Shown here piece by piece: positions 5,061-53,972 of a DNA stretch of 64,000 nucleotides. Source of the stretch: an uncultured Verrucomicrobiae bacterium (GTDB lineage: Bacteria > Verrucomicrobiota > Verrucomicrobiia > Chthoniobacterales > JAFAMB01); assembly GCA_963837955.1 (NCBI GenBank), contig CAWIPH010000002.1, forward strand, positions 3,069,175-3,133,174, read 5' to 3'. Under the pieces are notes generated by a model, which had not been told where the DNA came from, did not search any database, and worked only from the letters and a program-made list of their open reading frames with translations. Position 1 is the first letter of the stretch, and each line of letters opens with the position of its first letter. The position numbers and the translations under genes are program-made.

Positions 5061-6095
5061 TTAGTGATCTTTGCCTACGGCTAGCTCCATTGTCCCTTTG
5101 AATTTGGGCGCTTCTTCCTCGACGCCAAAATTGGCAGTGTACAACGATTGGATCCGGTCCATCTCGTCCTTAGTCAGCGCCGGAGTATCGGGTGCCGAAG
5201 CAAATTCGACGAGCTGCTGTTCGTCGTAGATGTTGGGCAACGTAGAGGCAATCCTCTCGTCCTTCAGGAGCCACTGAAGCGCTGCTTGTCCCAGAGTTCG
5301 ATCCGGACCCTCCAAAAATCGCAGTTCCTCGACTTTCTTGACGCCATTCAGCAACCAACTTCGCGGACGGTGATTCCGATGATCGTTCGGTGGAAACTGA
5401 GTGTCCGCAGTGTAATGCCCTTCCAACATCCCAGACGAATGGGTTACGCGGATCAGGAACATAGTGTCGCGACTCGCTTCCGCGGCGGCTTCCTGGATCG
5501 CTTTTCCCGGGTGCTGTTCTAAAAGGTTATAGATATGTTGCAGGCTGGTCAGATTCCTCCGCTGGACACAATGCACGCCTTCGTATAGCCAGCCGATCGC
5601 GGGTCCAAGGGCCACGCCGAAATAACGGATCTTTCCCTCCGCCTGGAGTTCCGCCAACGTTTCCCAGACCGAGTCGTCGTCGACCTGGTCCATCCGAATA
5701 TTGTGCAGTTGCAGGAGGTCTATTCGATCGGTCCGCAGTCGGGTCAACGCCGCATCGGTCGCTCTTCGGATCGCCTCAGGCGAAAAGTCTTGCGGGATCT
5801 CGCGCTGACCCCTCCGCTCATTTCCATAATTTACAAAGTCGTACCCGATCTTGGTCGCCACCACGATTTGATCGCGTCGATCTCGGAACGCTTCGGCAAT
5901 CAGATCCTCGCTCAATCCGTTCCCGTAGGTATCAGCCGCATCGAATAACGTGATGCCGAGATCAAATGCCCGGTGCATAAGTGCCGTCGCCTCGGATTTG
6001 GAAAAATTGCCCCACCAACCGGTCGAGATAGTCCAGAGACCGAAACCGACTTCGCTAACGGTGAGATCGGTATTGCGATAAGTGCGATATTTCAT
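5061..6095 (-). CDS. aldo/keto reductase
   Basis: FDAADTYG, VATKIG, IDLLQLH and GKIRYFGV motifs. Confidence 0.92.
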   Translation of the reverse strand: MKYRTYRNTDLTVSEVGFGLWTISTGWWGNFSKSEATALMHRAFDLGITLFDAADTYGNGLSEDLIAEAFRDRRDQIVVATKIGYDFVNYGNERRGQREIPQDFSPEAIRRATDAALTRLRTDRIDLLQLHNIRMDQVDDDSVWETLAELQAEGKIRYFGVALGPAIGWLYEGVHCVQRRNLTSLQHIYNLLEQHPGKAIQEAAAEASRDTMFLIRVTHSSGMLEGHYTADTQFPPNDHRNHRPRSWLLNGVKKVEELRFLEGPDRTLGQAALQWLLKDERIASTLPNIYDEQQLVEFASAPDTPALTKDEMDRIQSLYTANFGVEEEAPKFKGTMELAVGKDH

Positions 6096-6302
6096 GACGC
6101 AAACGGCATTATTGTGTGGATCGACCCTTACTGCAACCGGGTGGATTTGCGGAGGTCACGGATTGGTAGCCTGCGGGCCGCGCATTTGCGTCAACACAAG
6201 AGGTTGGATATGCGCCGAGAAGACTCGTCCCGGAGGGACTCAATGAAAGTAGATGACATGAGCCGACAGCTAACAGCACCCGCTGCTAAACTGTCGGCTC
6301 TT

Positions 6303-7415
6303 ATGAATAAATATAACCAGAAAATATTGAGCAGTGGCGGCAACGAAGCAAGTGTGATGCAGCATGGCAATCGGGTCCTGAAGTTGGGACTGGATATGCA
6401 CTATCGGCAGGTGACGGTGGCGATGCAGGAGGATGGAGGCCGGATCAAGGCTGTGGGCAAGATGAGTCATCAGGCTTTTGGGAGTTGGGTGAACAAGAAG
6501 TTGGCTCAAGGCTGGCAGATTGAGAGCTGTTACGAAGCCGGAGCCAGCGGTTACTGGCTACATCGGCAGCTGGTAGAGCTGGGAGTCAAGAACCTGGTGG
6601 TTGTGCCCAAGGCGATGGGAAAGAGAGGCAAGCAGCAAAAGACCGATCGGCGCGATAGCGCAGAGTTGGTCGATTCGCTGGATCGTTATCTCAGAGGCCA
6701 GGATAAAGCCTTGAGTGTGGTGGCCGTACCCAGTGTTGAACAGGAACAGAAGCGAGCGCTGATCCGCTACCATCGCCAGATCATGGCCGATCGAGGACGC
6801 TCTGAGGCCCGAGGTAAAGGCTTACTGTGTGCCCAAGGGCTCGAAGTCGGAGGCCGCTGGTGGCAGGGCAAAGGGTGGAGAGAACTCAACTCTGATCCCC
6901 GGCTCAAAGAGTGGATCAAAGAGCAGCTAGAAGGCTGGCGCCAGAAGGTATTAAGCGCTGAGGAGCAGCAAAAAGGCTTGCGGCGACGGATCGAAGCGCT
7001 GGCTCCGGCGATCCTGCCCAAAGGAGTGGGCGCCTACAGCGCGGCGGTGTTGGAATACGAGATGAAGGGTTGGAGGCGATTTAACAATCGGCGCCAGGTG
7101 GCTAGCTATACGGGTTTATGTCCCGGCATCCATCTCAGTGATGGCCGAGGCAAAGAGGGGTCCATCAACCGTTGTGGCAATCGGATCGTGCGCTGGAGCT
7201 TGGTGGAGATGGTCTGGCGGCTGATGATCTGGCAGCCCCACTATGGGCCGGTGCGTCAGCTGGCGGCTGGCATAGTCAAAAGCAAGCGCGCCAAGAGACG
7301 CTTGGTAGTCAAAGCGGCCCGGCGTTTAGCCATTGATTTATGGCGTTTATCAAGCGGACAAACCACGGCCGAAAAACTGGGTTTAGTCCTGCAGACCAAT
7401 AGGCAGAGCCTCTGA
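6303..7415 (+). CDS. IS110-family DEDD recombinase/transposase
   Basis: LGLDMH, CYEAG and KTDRRDS (D-E-D-D) plus YTGLCPGIHLSDG with the conserved Ser; the start could be 6303 or 6357. Confidence 0.92.
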   Translation: MNKYNQKILSSGGNEASVMQHGNRVLKLGLDMHYRQVTVAMQEDGGRIKAVGKMSHQAFGSWVNKKLAQGWQIESCYEAGASGYWLHRQLVELGVKNLVVVPKAMGKRGKQQKTDRRDSAELVDSLDRYLRGQDKALSVVAVPSVEQEQKRALIRYHRQIMADRGRSEARGKGLLCAQGLEVGGRWWQGKGWRELNSDPRLKEWIKEQLEGWRQKVLSAEEQQKGLRRRIEALAPAILPKGVGAYSAAVLEYEMKGWRRFNNRRQVASYTGLCPGIHLSDGRGKEGSINRCGNRIVRWSLVEMVWRLMIWQPHYGPVRQLAAGIVKSKRAKRRLVVKAARRLAIDLWRLSSGQTTAEKLGLVLQTNRQSL

Positions 7416-7459
7416 GGAGGCTCTCCAGCATCAAATCTGTGACTCTCTAGAGTGACTCT

Positions 7460-7640
7460 TTTGGCAGCAACGGCGCGCGTCTGATACTGGGCTTGGGCTA
7501 AAACCCGAAACGTAGATGAGGCCGCTCGTTGCTGTCCTTTTTCTTTGCTTAATTGCATAAATCACCGTGTTAGGAAGCTCCCCTTCCAACCGATAGAAGC
7601 TTAAACCGAGCAATCAATAGAAGCTCGCGTTGGGACAGCA
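7460..7640 (+). ncRNA. putative bridge/seek RNA of the IS110 element (boundaries approximate)
   Basis: Stem 7464-7472/7527-7535 encloses TACTGGGCT (7485-7493) and GTAG (7512-7515), which match the target; ATAGAAG (7593-7599) matches the donor junction. Confidence 0.7.
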
Positions 7641-7867
7641 AACGTTGGTCAGAGGCCAAAAAGAGCAACAAGAGAGCCGCTAAAAACAGCAAGAGATCTA
7701 GCGCTAATCGAAAAAGTCTCAGCCTCCATGATCCGAGCCTGGTAGCGCCGGTTGCAAGCTCAAAGCCGGTCCACAGGTGGCTTGTTGTCCGATCCCGGCT
7801 AAAACTAATCCAAACCTTCAAGAAACCTTCTTTTGGCGCTGGGTCTTGACAAACTGGGCTTCATAGA

Positions 7868-8000
7868 AGCCCAGTACGAAGTGCTGGGAAATGGCCCAAA
7901 GAGGCGTCCGTCCCGGAGGGACGAACGAACCGTTGCCCTTCGCCTCCAACGCAACTTCGCGAGCGCAGACGGTGGATCGATCGTCCCTTCCGGGACGGAC
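7868..8000. repeat. remainder of the family-A REPIN interrupted by the IS110 element
   Basis: AGCCCAGTACGAAGTGCTGGG followed by GTCCCGGAGGGACG and GTCCCTTCCGGGACG hairpins. Confidence 0.75.
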
Positions 8001-8170
8001 ACGTCTTTTTAACCTTCCCCCGGGAAAGGCGTTCCAAACGTTGCGCCCTCAAAGCGGCGCTAGAATAGATGCTCGCATTGGATTCTCGGCTGCGACATCG
8101 GATCCTCGTGCCCCTCCAGGGCATACCGTGTTAATACTAAACCCGGGGTTAAAACCCCGGGCTGAGTCCT

Positions 8171-8675
8171 TGTGTGTTTCGAGTCTGGGTAACACATTTG
8201 TGTCACTATTGAGGTGACACTTTGTGTCATAATTTGGGTGACACTTGTGAGCAGAGAGAGCGCACTTTGGTGGGCAGGCGGAAATTCCCAAGAACAACGC
8301 TTAGACTGCTTTGTGCGGTGCTCAGGATGGAGCGTGCAACGTTTTGCGGTTCATTGGAGGGAGCGAGGAACGAGCGAACGAAGATCGAACGCAAAATGTG
8401 GTTAACTCCTGGCGCGAAGCGGCTCCAGATCAAGCTCGAAACGGAATAAATGGAGGGGACCTGCCGCAGGCAGGGAGGAGGCCGTTTATGCCGGATTTGA
8501 GCTTGATCTGGAGTGGCGCCGCGCCCGCCAGTGATAGCGTACCAAGAGCCTCCAAGCCCAGAAGCAGAACTCCAGGCTCTGTTACCTTTTCTCTGACACA
8601 CCCCGAGGCTTTTTTACCTTCCAAGTGTCACCCAATTAGTGACACAAAAGTGTCACCCAAATATGAAACCGGACC
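8171..8675 (-). mobile_element. non-autonomous (MITE-like) derivative of the IS481-family element at 59205-60665
   Basis: Both ends are near-identical, in inverted orientation, to the IS481 ends (GTGTCACC/GGTGACAC arrays); flanked by TCCT at 8167-8170 and 8676-8679; no transposase. Confidence 0.88.
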
Positions 8676-8878
8676 TCCTCTTCCCCCTTCGGGGGACTGT
8701 CGCAAAGGAGCGGGCATTCAAAATAGCGGGAAACGCCGCTACCAATCGTTGGCTCTCTTCCTGCTCATTTCCGCCTCGCAAATTTTCCGACTTGCTTGTT
8801 TAAGGATCAGTGAGTGATGTAGCCCATTCGAACGCCGTGTGTGGCGGGGAACCGGAGAAAACACTAGGAGACACAGCT

Positions 8879-11428
8879 ATGCAACCTGTTCGGACTTTTA
8901 ACGTATCGCCTCGGTTGCCCGAGGTGCTGGAACCGCTTAATGATCTGGCTCGGAACCTCTGGTGGACCTGGGAGCCCGACGCCCGCAAGCTTTTCCGGGA
9001 CGTGAACCCAACGCTTTGGGACCAGACTAACCACAATCCAATTCGGATGCTGCAACTGTCCAGGCAAGCCCGGCTGGTGGAACTCGCTTCGGACGAGAAC
9101 TATCTCCGCAGCCTCCGTCAGGTATCCGGTCAGTTCCGAGCTTACATGGGTCGAACTGACACCTATGGTAAGCAACGGCCCGGGCCGCAAATCGCCTACT
9201 TTTCGGCGGAATTCGGTTTCCACGAATCGGTGCCGAACTACTCAGGCGGTCTGGGAATTCTTTCCGGTGACCACTGCAAATCGGCCAGCGACCTAGATCT
9301 CAATTTTTCCGCTGTCACGCTGCTCTACCGACACGGGTATTTTAAGCAGCAAATCAACAAAGATGGTTGGCAAGAGGCGGTCAGTCTAAACCAAAACTTC
9401 CACCATTTGCCGATCCGCGACGCGCGCGTTGGGGATCAGACCGTGTTCGTGACGGTAGACATTTTGGGACGGAACGTCACCGCGAAAGTGTGGGAACTCC
9501 AGATCGGGCGCATCAAGCTGTTCTTTTTGGATACGGACATTCCACAGAATTCACCGGAAGACCGCTTAATTACTGAACAGCTTTACGGGGGCGATTTGGA
9601 GATGCGGATCCGGCAGGAAATCGTTCTCGGTATTGGCGGAGTGCGCGCTCTCAATGCGCTCGGCGTCAAGCCGGAAGTCTTCCACATGAACGAAGGACAC
9701 TCGGCCTTTCTCTCGCTGGAACGGATTCGGCAGTATGTGCAGGAAAAGGGAATGAATTACTATCCGGCACTGCAGATGGTAGCAGCGTCGAACATCTTCA
9801 CGACCCATACGCCGGTCCCCGCCGGTAACGACGCTTTTTCCCGCGATCTAATCGGCCGCTATCTGGGCAAATACGCACACGATTTTGGATTGGGCTTCGA
9901 TGAGTTCTTCGCATTGGGACAGCCAATGCTCAATCCGCCACCATTGTTCAGCATGACCATCCTCGCTTTGCGTACGAGCCGGCATGCGAACGGCGTCAGT
10001 AAGCTACACGGCGAAATCAGCAAGAGTTTGTGGCAAGACGTTTGGGCCGGGGTCCCTTTGCCAGAGGTGCCAATTACGAGTGTCACCAACGGAATTCACA
10101 CCAAGACTTGGGCCGCCCCCGAGTTTCATCGGATGTACCAAAAATATTTGGGCGCGGATTGGGAAGACCATCTTACAGACGGAGAATTTTGGCGCCGGGT
10201 GATCGACATTCCGGACGAGGTTCTCTGGCAGACTCACCAACTCCTTAAGCAACGCCTGATCGATTTTATTCGGGAGCGGCTGCGCATCCAACGCGCGCGC
10301 ATTGGCGAGTCTCCTCAACAGCTCCGCGACGTCAACAGTGTGCTCAATCCCGATGTACTTACGGTCGGTTTTGCTCGGCGATTTGCCACCTACAAACGAG
10401 GCACGCTCCTTTTTTCCAACAAAGAGCGTTTGCTCCGCCTAATCCAGAACACCGAACGACCCGTCCAGTTCATCTTCGCCGGCAAAGCGCATCCGAAAGA
10501 CGAGCCGGGCAAAAAGATGATCCAGGAAGTTTACACCGCTTCCCGGGAATCCGGTTTTGAACATTCGATTGTTTTTGTTGAGGATTACGACACGTACATC
10601 GGCCGGCGCTTGTACCAAGGCGTAGACGTCTGGCTTAATAATCCGCTTCGACCTCTCGAGGCCAGCGGCACCAGCGGAATGAAGCTTCCGCCAAACGGCG
10701 GCCTGAATTTTAGCGTTCTCGATGGTTGGTGGTGTGAAGGTTATAACGGCAAGAACGGCTGGCCGATTGGACCGGAGATAACGGGCGGCAGCGTCGAATT
10801 TCAAAGCGAGGTCGATTCGGACAGCCTGTATAACATTTTGGAAAACCAGATCATTCCCCTGTACTACGCGAAACCGGATGGTCGTTTGCCGATCGCCTGG
10901 TTGCAGCTGATGCGGGAATCTATTCGGAGCGTAACACCGGTATTTAATACGCACCGAATGGTGAAAGAATACAATGAACGGCTCTATGAGACTGCCGCGA
11001 AAGGGCTGCAGGCGCTTAGCGCAAATGGTTGCAGAGCCGCGATTGAGCTAGCCGATTGGAAACAAAAGACTCGCGCCGACTGGGGTCAGATTCGCATCGA
11101 GCAGGTGAATGCTTCCCCCTCTGACACCAGCGATCTATTCGTCGGAGACGTCTTGCAGGTGGAAGCGAAAGTGTTCCTGGGGCCAGTTGATCCGTCTCAT
11201 GTGCGCGTACAAGCCTACCTCGGGCACAGCGATGATGGGGCCCTCAGCGAACCGTTTACGATTGATCTCCAAGAGATAGAAAAAGGAACGGCGCCTGGGC
11301 AATTCACGTTTAAGGGAACGATCAAAGCGACCGAGAGCGGGAGCTATGGCTTCAACGTCCGCGTCATCCCGACCCATCCTTATCTGAGTCAGGACCATGA
11401 GCTGCGGTTGATTACCTGGGCGAAATGA
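8879..11428 (+). CDS. glgP: alpha-glucan (glycogen/maltodextrin) phosphorylase
   Basis: YSGGLGIL, HMNEGH, ARRFATYKR and EASGTSGMK PLP motif; AGGAG RBS at 8866-8870. Confidence 0.95.
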   Translation: MQPVRTFNVSPRLPEVLEPLNDLARNLWWTWEPDARKLFRDVNPTLWDQTNHNPIRMLQLSRQARLVELASDENYLRSLRQVSGQFRAYMGRTDTYGKQRPGPQIAYFSAEFGFHESVPNYSGGLGILSGDHCKSASDLDLNFSAVTLLYRHGYFKQQINKDGWQEAVSLNQNFHHLPIRDARVGDQTVFVTVDILGRNVTAKVWELQIGRIKLFFLDTDIPQNSPEDRLITEQLYGGDLEMRIRQEIVLGIGGVRALNALGVKPEVFHMNEGHSAFLSLERIRQYVQEKGMNYYPALQMVAASNIFTTHTPVPAGNDAFSRDLIGRYLGKYAHDFGLGFDEFFALGQPMLNPPPLFSMTILALRTSRHANGVSKLHGEISKSLWQDVWAGVPLPEVPITSVTNGIHTKTWAAPEFHRMYQKYLGADWEDHLTDGEFWRRVIDIPDEVLWQTHQLLKQRLIDFIRERLRIQRARIGESPQQLRDVNSVLNPDVLTVGFARRFATYKRGTLLFSNKERLLRLIQNTERPVQFIFAGKAHPKDEPGKKMIQEVYTASRESGFEHSIVFVEDYDTYIGRRLYQGVDVWLNNPLRPLEASGTSGMKLPPNGGLNFSVLDGWWCEGYNGKNGWPIGPEITGGSVEFQSEVDSDSLYNILENQIIPLYYAKPDGRLPIAWLQLMRESIRSVTPVFNTHRMVKEYNERLYETAAKGLQALSANGCRAAIELADWKQKTRADWGQIRIEQVNASPSDTSDLFVGDVLQVEAKVFLGPVDPSHVRVQAYLGHSDDGALSEPFTIDLQEIEKGTAPGQFTFKGTIKATESGSYGFNVRVIPTHPYLSQDHELRLITWAK

Positions 11429-23775: not shown

Positions 23776-24000
23776 ATCCCGCAGGGATACCATGAAAGTA
23801 GCCCAGCAATTTATTGCTGGGAATTGATGCAAAAACCGGTCCCGTCCCGACAGGGACGATCGAAACGTTCAGTTATTGGCCTCCAATGTGACTTTACGAA
23901 CGCAAGCCGTGGTCGATCATCCCATCCGGGACGGACGTGTTTTTTCAATCTTTACCCAGCAATAAATTGCTGGGCTACTTTCGTGGCATCCCTTCGGGAT
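23776..24000. repeat. family-A REPIN (complete inverted pair)
   Basis: GAAAGTAGCCCAGCAATTTATTGCTGGG inverted against CCCAGCAATAAATTGCTGGGCTACTTTC. Confidence 0.85.
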
Positions 24001-53629: not shown

Positions 53630-53972
53630 GTCCCGACTTGTCCGCCGTAGCCCGGAGGCCGCGCCACAGCAAAGTGAAGGAGAGGCGAAGGAGGAAGGTG
53701 CCCAATGAAAGTAGCCCGGTACGAAGTGCCGGGTAAGCTTCTTTTAAAAGTGATACGTCCCGCGAGGGACGATCGATGACCGCTAGGGATCGCGAAATCA
53801 CTATCGGGGCGAAGAGCCGAACGTTTTCGATCGTCCCTCGCGGGACGGGCGCGTTTACCATCCATCTCCCGGCACTTCGTACCGGGCTACTATCGAATGT
53901 CCCTTCCTCCTTCGCCTCGCCGTCGCTTTGCTATAGCGCAGCCTGCAGGCTACGGCGGACAAGGCGGGACTA
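53630..53972. repeat. family-A REPIN with nested palindromes
   Basis: GAAAGTAGCCCGGTACGAAGTGCCGGG inverted against CCCGGCACTTCGTACCGGGCTAC. Confidence 0.82.

Follow-up and report, generated by a model that had tools for sequence, protein, structure and literature searches.

We analyzed a 64-kb window (the whole 64,000-nucleotide [nt] stretch taken from contig CAWIPH010000002.1 of an uncultured Verrucomicrobiae bacterium), in which an insertion sequence of the IS110 family interrupts a repetitive extragenic palindrome (REP). On the plus strand, a transposase gene is followed by 452 nt of non-coding DNA (7416-7867), against 50 nt before the ATG at 6303. A longer downstream non-coding region is a criterion of the IS1111 group (PMC11187229 and PMC11208160). 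We consider it very probable that positions 6253-7867 are an intact IS1111-group element of a soil verrucomicrobium, with a guide RNA encoded in its 3' region (Table 1). The assignment to the IS1111 group is by organization, and all features of the group that could be tested were found. A preliminary description of the locus had proposed a new programmable recombinase orthologue with a downstream-encoded guide. New it is, but more precisely it belongs to the IS1111 group, and it is clearly a further example of the seekRNA/bridge-RNA elements of that group and not a new kind, guide RNAs of this sort having been predicted for 93% of IS1111 elements (PMC11208160).

Transposase, junctions and host target

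The transposase matched both Pfam domains of the family, PF01548 (DEDD_Tnp_IS110, 1e-06, 29.1 bits for a cut-off of 29) and PF02371 (Transposase_20, 3.7e-14), and, over nearly its full length but just under the cut-off, the NCBIfam model NF033542 'IS110 family RNA-guided transposase' (E 2e-39). A search of the PDB with the single transposase sequence gave no match, while a profile built from 10 family members matched the transposases of ISCro4 (E 1.1e-09) and IS621 (E 2.2e-07). The motifs LGLD, CYEAG and KTDRRD were conserved over 13 family members, and we take their acidic residues to be the DEDD set. The family motif quoted as GL-P----S(G) in PMC11187229 reads GLCPGIHLSD (GLxPxxxxS), with the serine kept and the next residue being D here and G, N or A in relatives. 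Both possible starts give a protein somewhat outside the family length of 330 to 350 amino acids (aa) stated in that paper (352 to 370 aa), and the N-terminal stretch from ATG 6303 was conserved in L031 and L033, two of the related loci described below. The best plasmid-borne IS110-family proteins were at most 34% identical, and no named relative from Verrucomicrobiota was found.

The bounds of the element were taken from intact genomic REPs and from the alignment of eight close-family copies. They enclose 1,615 bp, or 1,617 bp with one AG core; the IS1111 convention puts the element at 6251-7867. The core AG is present at both junctions. The left flank ...GTCCCGGAGGGACTCAATGAAAGTAG stops at 6252, where the element opens with ATGACATGAGCC at 6253, and its last letters, ...GGGCTTCATAGA, are followed by AG and then by CCCAGTACGAAGTGCTGGG. 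The element thus splits a GTAG-headed REP, its insertion point being precisely GAAAGTAG/CCCAGTA (marked by the slash), and in silico excision of 6253-7867 with one AG gave back the intact repeat. At all 10 genomic sites printed, the two REP halves abut as ...GA[AT]AGTAG/CCCAGTACGAAGTGCTGGG..., with the exact 15-mer in eight and a one-base variant in two. Insertion was site and orientation specific, without target duplication beyond the AG common to both junctions.

The interrupted REP consists of an unpaired GTAG head and a hairpin, CCCAG-TACGAAGTG-CTGGG, present in high copy number. A GTAG tetranucleotide beside a short palindrome is the kind of REP defined by Di Nocera et al. (PMC3733652). 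The 15-mer GAAAGTAGCCCAGTA occurs 83 times exactly in the genome, 166 times with at most one mismatch and 208 times with at most two, and GTAGCCCAGTA has 87 genomic copies; on the opposite strand, the target reads TACTGGG-CT-ACTTTC. In the window the REP is exact at 90-104, has one mismatch at 23794, 23968 and 53707 and two at 53880, and matches with up to three mismatches numbered seven (0.92 expected). The preliminary description had placed the element at 6226-7890, a range that includes the REP flanks. Its further statements, that removal of the element and one AG restores a repeat which it named REP-A, and that this repeat recurs intact at 90-104 and as variants near 23795, 23970, 53707 and 53880, agreed with what we found.

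Querying the 5.62-Mb genome of the host with 6200-7920 returned 99 matches: one full-length (the window itself), one of 221 bp at 95% identity, and, for the rest, the first 53 or last 56 bases of the query, i.e., the two repeat halves. The window element is the sole full copy in this genome. Close relatives (84 to 93% protein identity) were found at nine loci in genome contigs, namely, L031 and L032 in separate metagenome-assembled genomes (MAGs) and five full and two partial copies in one Verrucomicrobiae MAG. The preliminary description had suggested mapping other copies and held that insertions at unrelated sites would speak against it; this was not borne out, as the seven further full-length close copies (L031 to L037, in three other assemblies) all shared the REP family and the position within it, L032 showing its right junction only. 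The left junction read GA[AT][AG]GTAG/ATGACATG... in all seven close-family copies with a visible left flank, and the right one ...CATAGA AG CCC[AG]G[TC]A; the copies with visible ends begin ATGACATGAGCCGACAG, and all end GGCTTCATAGA-AG-CCC[AG]G[TC]A. As every visible copy has the same junctions, all sit at one point of one REP family in different hosts. More distantly, 17 of 401 sampled Verrucomicrobiota genomes had a match at an E value of 1e-20 or lower, among them elements of 31 to 47% protein identity and L058, in the window's own genome (for the G054 loci, whose flanks are unrelated, pairwise BLAST was used). L031, which has 91% DNA identity and the same REP type, lies on a 5.2-kb contig binned to an Acidobacteriota-type MAG. 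L032 to L037 are from Verrucomicrobiota. The placement of L031 in another phylum would be due to recent transfer or, as its REP flank suggests, to mis-binning.

At the termini, ATGAGCC pairs with GGCTTCAT at 7 of 8 positions with one indel, and outside these subterminal inverted repeats lie 7 nt on the left (AG plus ATGAC) and 3 nt on the right (AGA). Such repeats are reported as 7 to 17 bp long in the IS1111 group (PMC11208160), placing those of the window at the short end; in L043 they are longer (ATGGGAG/CTCCCAT). The terminal layout of AG, 5 nt and ATG... was also found in distant relatives. A pattern search located TTGAC[AG] 14 or 16 nt before the core in 18 of 22 related copies, and its promoter role is inferred from ISEc11 and ISEc21 (PMC11187229). 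Separately, a perfect 10-bp palindrome, ACTGGGCTTC ATA GAAGCCCAGT, spans the right end and its flank (7853-7875), and its inner arm repeats most of the 9-nt guide described below. L031 has kept this palindrome, whereas a flank G weakens it in L032 and the MAG copies have a weaker form.

Table 1. Features of the element and its flanks (window coordinates)
Feature	Position	Strand	Basis
Left REP half with GTAG head (6249-6252), core AG at 6251-6252	6226..6252	+	matches intact genomic REPs
Left terminus: spacer ATGAC (6253-6257), subterminal inverted repeat ATGAGCC (6258-6264)	6253..6264	+	sequence, alignment
Left-end hairpin, 10-bp perfect stem 6260-6269/6291-6300	6260..6300	+	repeat search
Transposase gene, 370 aa (ATG 6303) or 352 aa (ATG 6357)	6303..7415	+	Pfam, NCBIfam, PDB profile
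Target-binding module of predicted guide RNA (seekRNA core)	7459..7538	+	model R1
Outer stem 5' strand (X), pairs with 7527-7536	7463..7472	+	folding, covariation helix 1
Inner stem 5' strand, pairs with 7519-7525	7475..7482	+	RNAalifold
Predicted guide TACTGGGCT / RNA UACUGGGCU, 9 nt, complementary to plus strand AG-CCCAGTA	7485..7493	+	sequence, repeat search, flank test
Apical hairpin of target loop, U·G closing pair	7494..7507	+	folding, covariation helix 2
Predicted guide GUAG, equal to plus strand left flank (GT and core AG)	7512..7515	+	sequence, repeat search
Strand Y, outer stem 3' strand; also complementary to 7633-7643	7527..7537	+	folding, repeat search
Candidate left-end guide AUCAC, weak	7561..7565	+	family motif xx[U/G]CAxx
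Hairpin between two donor-side strands	7569..7591	+	folding; one compensatory pair, UA to GC
Putative right-end (donor) guide AUAGAAG, equal to right end and core (ATAGA-AG)	7593..7599	+	invariance, covariation
Duplicate of 7587-7601 with second ATAGAAG (7617-7623), this copy only	7611..7625	+	repeat search
Strand Z, complementary to Y in its 5' part and to X (7457-7472) in its 3' part	7633..7661	+	duplex tests, repeat search
-35-like TTGACA facing outward, 16 nt before core	7846..7851	+	pattern search
Right subterminal inverted repeat GGCTTCAT (7857-7864) and extension AGA (7865-7867)	7857..7867	+	sequence, alignment
Second AG core (7868-7869) and right REP half, hairpin CCCAG...CTGGG (7870-7888)	7868..7922	+	genomic REPs

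The predicted target-binding module and its guides

The non-coding tails of distant relatives share a common plan: a GC-rich stem, a strand ending in CU and a small hairpin closed by U·G, followed by a strand ending in AG, the letters AUUG or AUGA and the return strand of the stem. With both loop strands held unpaired, all 13 sequences folded to this plan, each with its own stem letters, and the apical hairpin formed in all 13 despite different stem letters. RNAalifold on a plain MAFFT alignment of the 13 tails recovered the inner stem only, with all seven of its pairs compensatory. We then built a covariance model, R1, from 10 distant relatives (31 to 47% protein identity), none of which belongs to the window lineage. 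On both strands of the 64-kb window, R1 gave a single match, full length, at 7459-7538 on the plus strand (25.8 bits, E 9.8e-05), and over 26 sources it found 16 modules. In these, 79.5% of the paired cells could pair, compared with 61.8% in shuffles, both sides change in 18 of 21 pairs, and the covariation score was 0.56, against 0.23 in shuffles (reached in 0 of 500) and 0.16 to 0.24 with slid partners; as the counts use a model-fitted alignment of kin lineages, these figures are somewhat generous. The region 7455-7540 is also the best-conserved stretch of the element, with 97.7% identity to L031 and 91.9% to L033, against 92.2% and 85.5% for the coding sequence. A sigma-70 promoter search in the tail returned one site (7461-7488), where 0.8 were expected; such a promoter inside the tail was rejected as being at chance level.

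Both strands of the target loop cover the core AG/CU, and the AUGA that follows GUAG (7516-7519) equals the first 4 nt of the element. An independent repeat search recovered a 10-nt perfect complement between 7485-7494 and 7867-7876 and a 10/11 identity between 6246-6256 and 7509-7519. The same 1.7 kb, however, holds 23 inverted pairs of at least 9 nt, some of them perfect and unrelated to any junction, so that the matches alone are not beyond chance; it is the comparative data that make them significant. Guides and flanks were compared across loci by a script that used, for each locus, its right flank and the 5' loop strand as aligned to the model. Among the 16 loci, 11 had at least 10 nt of right flank, two had 4 and 3 nt, and three had no flank found by pattern; the right flank of L058 was read by eye. 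In nine of the 11, the Watson-Crick run from the core into the locus's own flank was 8 to 11 nt (L048, 11 nt; L043, L046 and L050, 10 nt; the window, L031 and L034, 9 nt; L045 and L057, 8 nt). The other two had runs of 5 nt, which become 9 nt in L033 and 11 nt in L032 with G·U pairs, and the two loci with short flanks matched over their whole length. The 195 non-own pairs, in contrast, averaged 3.41 nt, and those of at least 8 nt were all between sister elements with the same or a near-identical target. Between L048 and L050 one guide position differs, and the matching flank position differs too. Likewise, the MAG copies carry UGCUGGGCU in place of UACUGGGCU and adjoin CCCAGCA, CCCGGCA or CCCGGTA. 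On the other side of the loop, the 3' strand matched its own left flank over 4 to 7 nt, against 2.9 nt for non-own pairs (from hand-copied strings), and in the MAG copies this strand reads AAAGUAGAUGA, identical to the left junction over 11 nt.

The preliminary description had read a stem at 7464-7472/7527-7535, TACTGGGCT at 7485-7493 and GTAG at 7512-7515, coordinates that check against the sequence, and had taken the loop to be directed at the REP. The covariance model and guide-target comparison that it had proposed, with the single R1 match, the stem covariation and the pairing of guides with their own flanks, back this reading. Tail and flank could also match by chance or through a captured REP fragment, with no RNA function. 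REPs are everywhere in this genome, and the inverted repeats of at least 9 nt that lie away from the junctions would fit such an origin. Nevertheless, lineages whose targets are unrelated have their match at the corresponding place in the loop, the stems covary, the module is more conserved than the gene and no REP-like hairpin was found within 7459-7538, all of which makes this explanation extremely improbable.

Across lineages, the GUAG strand stayed constant on the GTAG head of the REP in six of the 10 lineages with a known left flank, while the 8- to 11-nt strand was rewritten according to the REP stem of each host. The strand complementary to the plus strand (7485-7493) lies 5' of the one identical to it (7512-7515). 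Siddiquee et al. (PMC11187229) describe the top-strand match as lying 5' of the bottom-strand match in IS1111-type seekRNAs, with the opposite order in the IS110 type. We found no explicit statement linking GTAG heads to IS110/IS1111 insertion points in the available parts of PMC3733652 and PMC13604230; the link is implicit in print, since the ISPa11 target in a review table begins with GTAG.

By this organization, the DEDD transposase would work with a non-coding RNA from the 3' region, transcribed in the direction of the gene. The long stem of the module would hold the internal loop open, with its 5' strand UACUGGGCU pairing with the plus strand core AG and first arm of the REP hairpin and its 3' strand GUAG pairing with the strand opposite the GTAG head. 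Such pairings would therefore direct insertion precisely to the boundary of GTAG head and REP hairpin, with a single orientation and only AG shared.

Genome-wide, the REP arm matched by the guide has two main variants, CCCAGTA (83, counted as the 15-mer) and CCCAGCA (64). The window guide fits the former, and that of the MAG relatives, UGCUGGGCU, would fit the latter and tolerate CCCAGTA through G·U. A second IS1111-type element of the same genome, L058 (C2:1172790-1174390), has 36% protein identity and is also single copy. It has inserted at GATCGGTAG/GGCGAACGC, within another GTAG-headed repeat that is found intact a short way downstream in further copies, and the element's loop strands UUCGCCCU and GGUAG match its own flanks. 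The target of L058 (GGTAG/GGCGAA) nearly equals the one listed for ISPa11.

The donor side and a possible long form of the RNA

Downstream of the target module, folding gave, in most lineages, a closing helix round a multi-branch loop that displays two donor-side strands flanking a hairpin; the domain is too variable for MAFFT alignment. The 3' of these strands, GAUAG[A/C]AG, was invariant but for one letter in 13 aligned tails. This letter equals that of the right end (CATAG[A/C]-AG) in all 18 copies in which both patterns were found, of 22 examined. It is A in the window lineage and in L048/L050 and C in the others. L058 and L042, whose right ends were read by eye, also agree with the motif letter; L041 and L047 have no right end. 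The preliminary description had pointed to ATAGAAG at both 7593-7599 and 7617-7623. The first is a credible right-end guide, judging from its covariation with the end, while the second is private to the window copy and, being absent from all relatives, was rejected as a guide of the family. At the place of the 15-nt duplicate that contains it, L031 and L032 have ATCCAGCAAGCT and the MAG copies ATGATCAAGCT. The duplicate is 13/15 identical to its source, replaces sequence found in all relatives and makes a local hairpin, AGCUU...AAGCU.

A left-end guide was expected to read (A)UGUCAUCU. The candidate, a motif 5' of the donor hairpin, is AAUCACC here, and only its UCA pairs with the TGA of ATGAC, in keeping with the earlier remark that the left donor guide was not clearly identifiable. 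In all 22 copies listed, the second variable letter of the motif varied together with position 4 of the left end, A going with U and C with G: U was found with ATGAC left ends and G with ATGCC and ATACT left ends. This count includes L032, whose left end is missing, by its identity with L031. Position 3 of the left end is mismatched in L048 and L050. We thus regard 7561-7565 as an uncertain, weak candidate for the left-end guide. UCAUC-like motifs after the right-end guide were rejected for this role, as they are part of the X:Z helix (see below) in L048 and L050.

Overall, the donor domain (~7540-7661) would show AUAGAAG in a multi-branch loop; as this strand matches the right end and core, it would therefore read the joined ends of the excised circle. 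The left end would be read by the 3- to 5-nt pairing at 7561-7565 or by the protein via the subterminal inverted repeats, and formation of the RNA-protein complex and of the circle and strand exchange at the AG/CT core are envisaged by analogy with ISEc11, ISPa11 and IS621. Alternatively, only the module at 7459-7538 might act as a guide, for recognition of target and flank, with the transposase recognizing the ends through the inverted repeats and the AUAGAAG domain serving as a scaffold or in processing. An 82-nt seekRNA alone supported movement of ISEc11, whose donor needed target-sequence flanks (PMC11187229), and in the window element the left-end guide is not clear, inverted repeats stand at both ends and GAUAG[A/C]AGGUU hardly varies, which would equally be expected of a motif bound by protein. 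Yet the one variable letter of this motif agrees with the right end in all 18 copies and is A in two distinct lineages, the helices closing the donor domain differ in sequence between lineages, and Durrant et al. place donor-binding nucleotides in the multi-loops of IS1111 RNAs (PMC11208160). We hence judge a guide for the target alone to be unlikely, and favor an RNA that also reads at least the right end.

The stem strands of the target module have a further partner. Y (7527-7537) is perfectly complementary to 7633-7641, and X with its U-run (7457-7472) is complementary to 7643-7661, so that strand Z could pair with both. With four close-family sequences, RNAalifold preferred X:Z and Y:Z over X:Y, only two pairs being compensatory. 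In 13 sequences from ~9 lineages, the Y:Z duplex beat all but 0 to 44 of 200 shuffles and the X:Z duplex all but 0 to 177, the latter being weak in L041, L042 and L047. The X-binding part of Z was always directly 3' of the Y-binding part, and the same three-strand relation, in different letters, recurred in most of the ~9 lineages compared. The long RNA (~7457-7661) might thus be a three-way junction that switches form, a model that we put forward only tentatively and think somewhat improbable. With Z present, X:Z and Y:Z would form and display the target loop and the donor multi-loop side by side (bridge form); once processed off Z, X:Y would close a target-only hairpin (seek form). By analogy, a long form of ~205 nt and a short one of ~80 nt would fit those purified for ISEc11 and ISPa11. 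If true, such a junction would tie the short and long seekRNAs of IS1111 elements to the bridge-RNA picture and give a handle on telling excision from insertion. The two 2024 papers may already illustrate such a multi-loop or junction.

L031 and L032 carry CTCTAGATGAC directly ahead of the RNA module (7446-7456 in the window, ~2596-2606 in L031), an 8-nt repeat of TAG/ATGAC from the left junction. In the window the letters there are CTCTAGAGTGAC, and the MAG copies differ; this match is probably due to chance.

Kinship with described elements and state of the window copy

In layout and target, the closest described case is ISPa11 of the IS1111 family from Pseudomonas aeruginosa (seekRNA of 96 nt, long form of 172 nt). 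The two share a non-coding RNA downstream of the transposase gene, subterminal inverted repeats, a top-strand match 5' of the bottom-strand match and a REP target, listed as beginning GTAGGGCG, at the GTAG head (PMC13604230; Siddiquee et al., PMC11187229). They differ in host phylum (Verrucomicrobiota here) and REP stem (CCCAGTA... here), and the RNA was purified for ISPa11 and is predicted for the window element. ISEc11, of the same family (seekRNAs of 82 and 154 nt), resembles the window element in its short left end, transposase, long 3' non-coding region and outward -35 at the right end, in its 7-nt left extension, counting shared bases, and in two short guide matches that overlap at the insertion point, with natural retargeting among relatives (PMC11187229). 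Its target, however, is linear and not a REP, and the long form in the window appears to be ~205 nt (7457-7661).

IS621, of the IS110 group, has in common with the window element a DEDD recombinase, the CT/AG core, a REP target and, as proposed for the window element, a second loop that reads the joined ends, and its nine-base LTG and four-base RTG including the core (PMC11208160) compare with 9 and 4 nt here. In contrast, its RNA lies upstream, in the left end, with the order of strand matches reversed, its donor loop is a simple internal loop whereas that predicted for the window element is multi-branch, and it has no long subterminal inverted repeats; the window transposase as a single sequence finds nothing in the PDB. 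Two IS110-family elements of Pseudomonas putida, ISPpu9 and ISPpu10, likewise lie in REPs, the former having a small RNA gene downstream of its transposase gene (PMC12288879, PMC8450116). That RNA, Ssr9, is reported there to be dispensable for ISPpu9 transposition and a separately mobile module, unlike the predicted downstream RNA of the window element, which carries a target-matching loop and is conserved with the gene.

The window element leaves the known picture of RNA-guided insertion sequences unchanged and adds to it, from Verrucomicrobiota, a clearly readable predicted guide RNA of the IS1111 type together with the target. In the small family to which the element belongs, natural retargeting can be followed as an unusually clean series, which is of use in designing IS1111-type recombinases, in which donor recognition is less understood than in IS621.

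Several points weigh against an intact, RNA-guided IS1111-group element. The NF033542 score falls just below its cut-off (135.7 against 140 bits), and Rfam 15, searched over 5800-8400 with E values up to 10, gave no relevant match, the presence of an IS1111 model in it being uncertain. In the guides, C7511 replaces the matching A of the relatives, leaving 4 contiguous nt (GUAG) for the left flank, the left-end guide is at best 3 nt long in this copy, and 7611-7625 is a private rearrangement of the donor domain. The guide RNA is predicted only. None of the public sequencing runs searched contained half of the element's sequence words, and the contigs of four runs cannot show transcription, ends or strand. 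In a soil RNA library, contigs of relatives spanned the element, and one of 207 nt over 7468-7648 had a depth of 68, against 19 for the transposase contig. This is a weak hint of expression, as contig depth cannot rank the parts of a gene, the library may contain DNA and several variants share the conserved part. Finally, 16 nt separate the -35-like hexamer from the core in this lineage, a distance that is 14 nt in 10 of the 18 copies located by pattern, making a junction promoter less obvious, and there is one full copy of the element for 83 exact targets, so that it may be inactive or tightly repressed.

The last two points would also suit a relic, i.e., an element of RNA-guided architecture whose present copy no longer moves, which is compatible with the assignment made above. 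For 83 exact and 166 near-exact targets there are just one full copy and a left-end remnant of 221 bp, and the 15-nt duplication in the donor domain and the mismatch in the left-flank guide point the same way as the hexamer spacing. On the other hand, the reading frame of the window copy is open with all motifs, and its ends and 9-nt guide are intact. The family moved recently, as L031 and L032 have 91% DNA identity in other assemblies and a related MAG has five full copies. Low copy number may be a trait of the host, since its second IS1111-type element is single copy as well. We see an inactive relic as possible but doubtful.

The remnant (C2:1542088-1542308, minus strand) is a solo left end with 95% identity to 6229-6449. 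Its left junction is the normal one, GAAAGTAG/ATGACATG, and within the gene, at ...GGATCAAG, it passes straight into the right REP half, its ...GGCCGGATCAAG (window 6437-6448) being directly joined to CCCAATACGAAGTGCTGGGG. It corresponds to the loss of everything between an internal AG and the AG of the right end, which could have arisen by aberrant RNA-guided excision or by a 3-nt microhomology deletion.

At the left end, the hairpin at 6260-6300 stops 2 nt short of the likely start ATG 6303, and comparable hairpins with other letters were found in L041, L042 and L058. Its role may be to prevent read-through or to hide the start codon, by analogy with the leader of ISPpu9, which is described as acting so (PMC8450116). 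Beyond the element, the spacer at 7900-8800, up to a glycogen-phosphorylase-like gene (8810-11428), contains further hairpins of the form GTCCC...GGGAC along with other palindromes, such as CCCGGGGTTAAAACCCCGGG at 8142-8161, and looks like a cluster of repeat elements.

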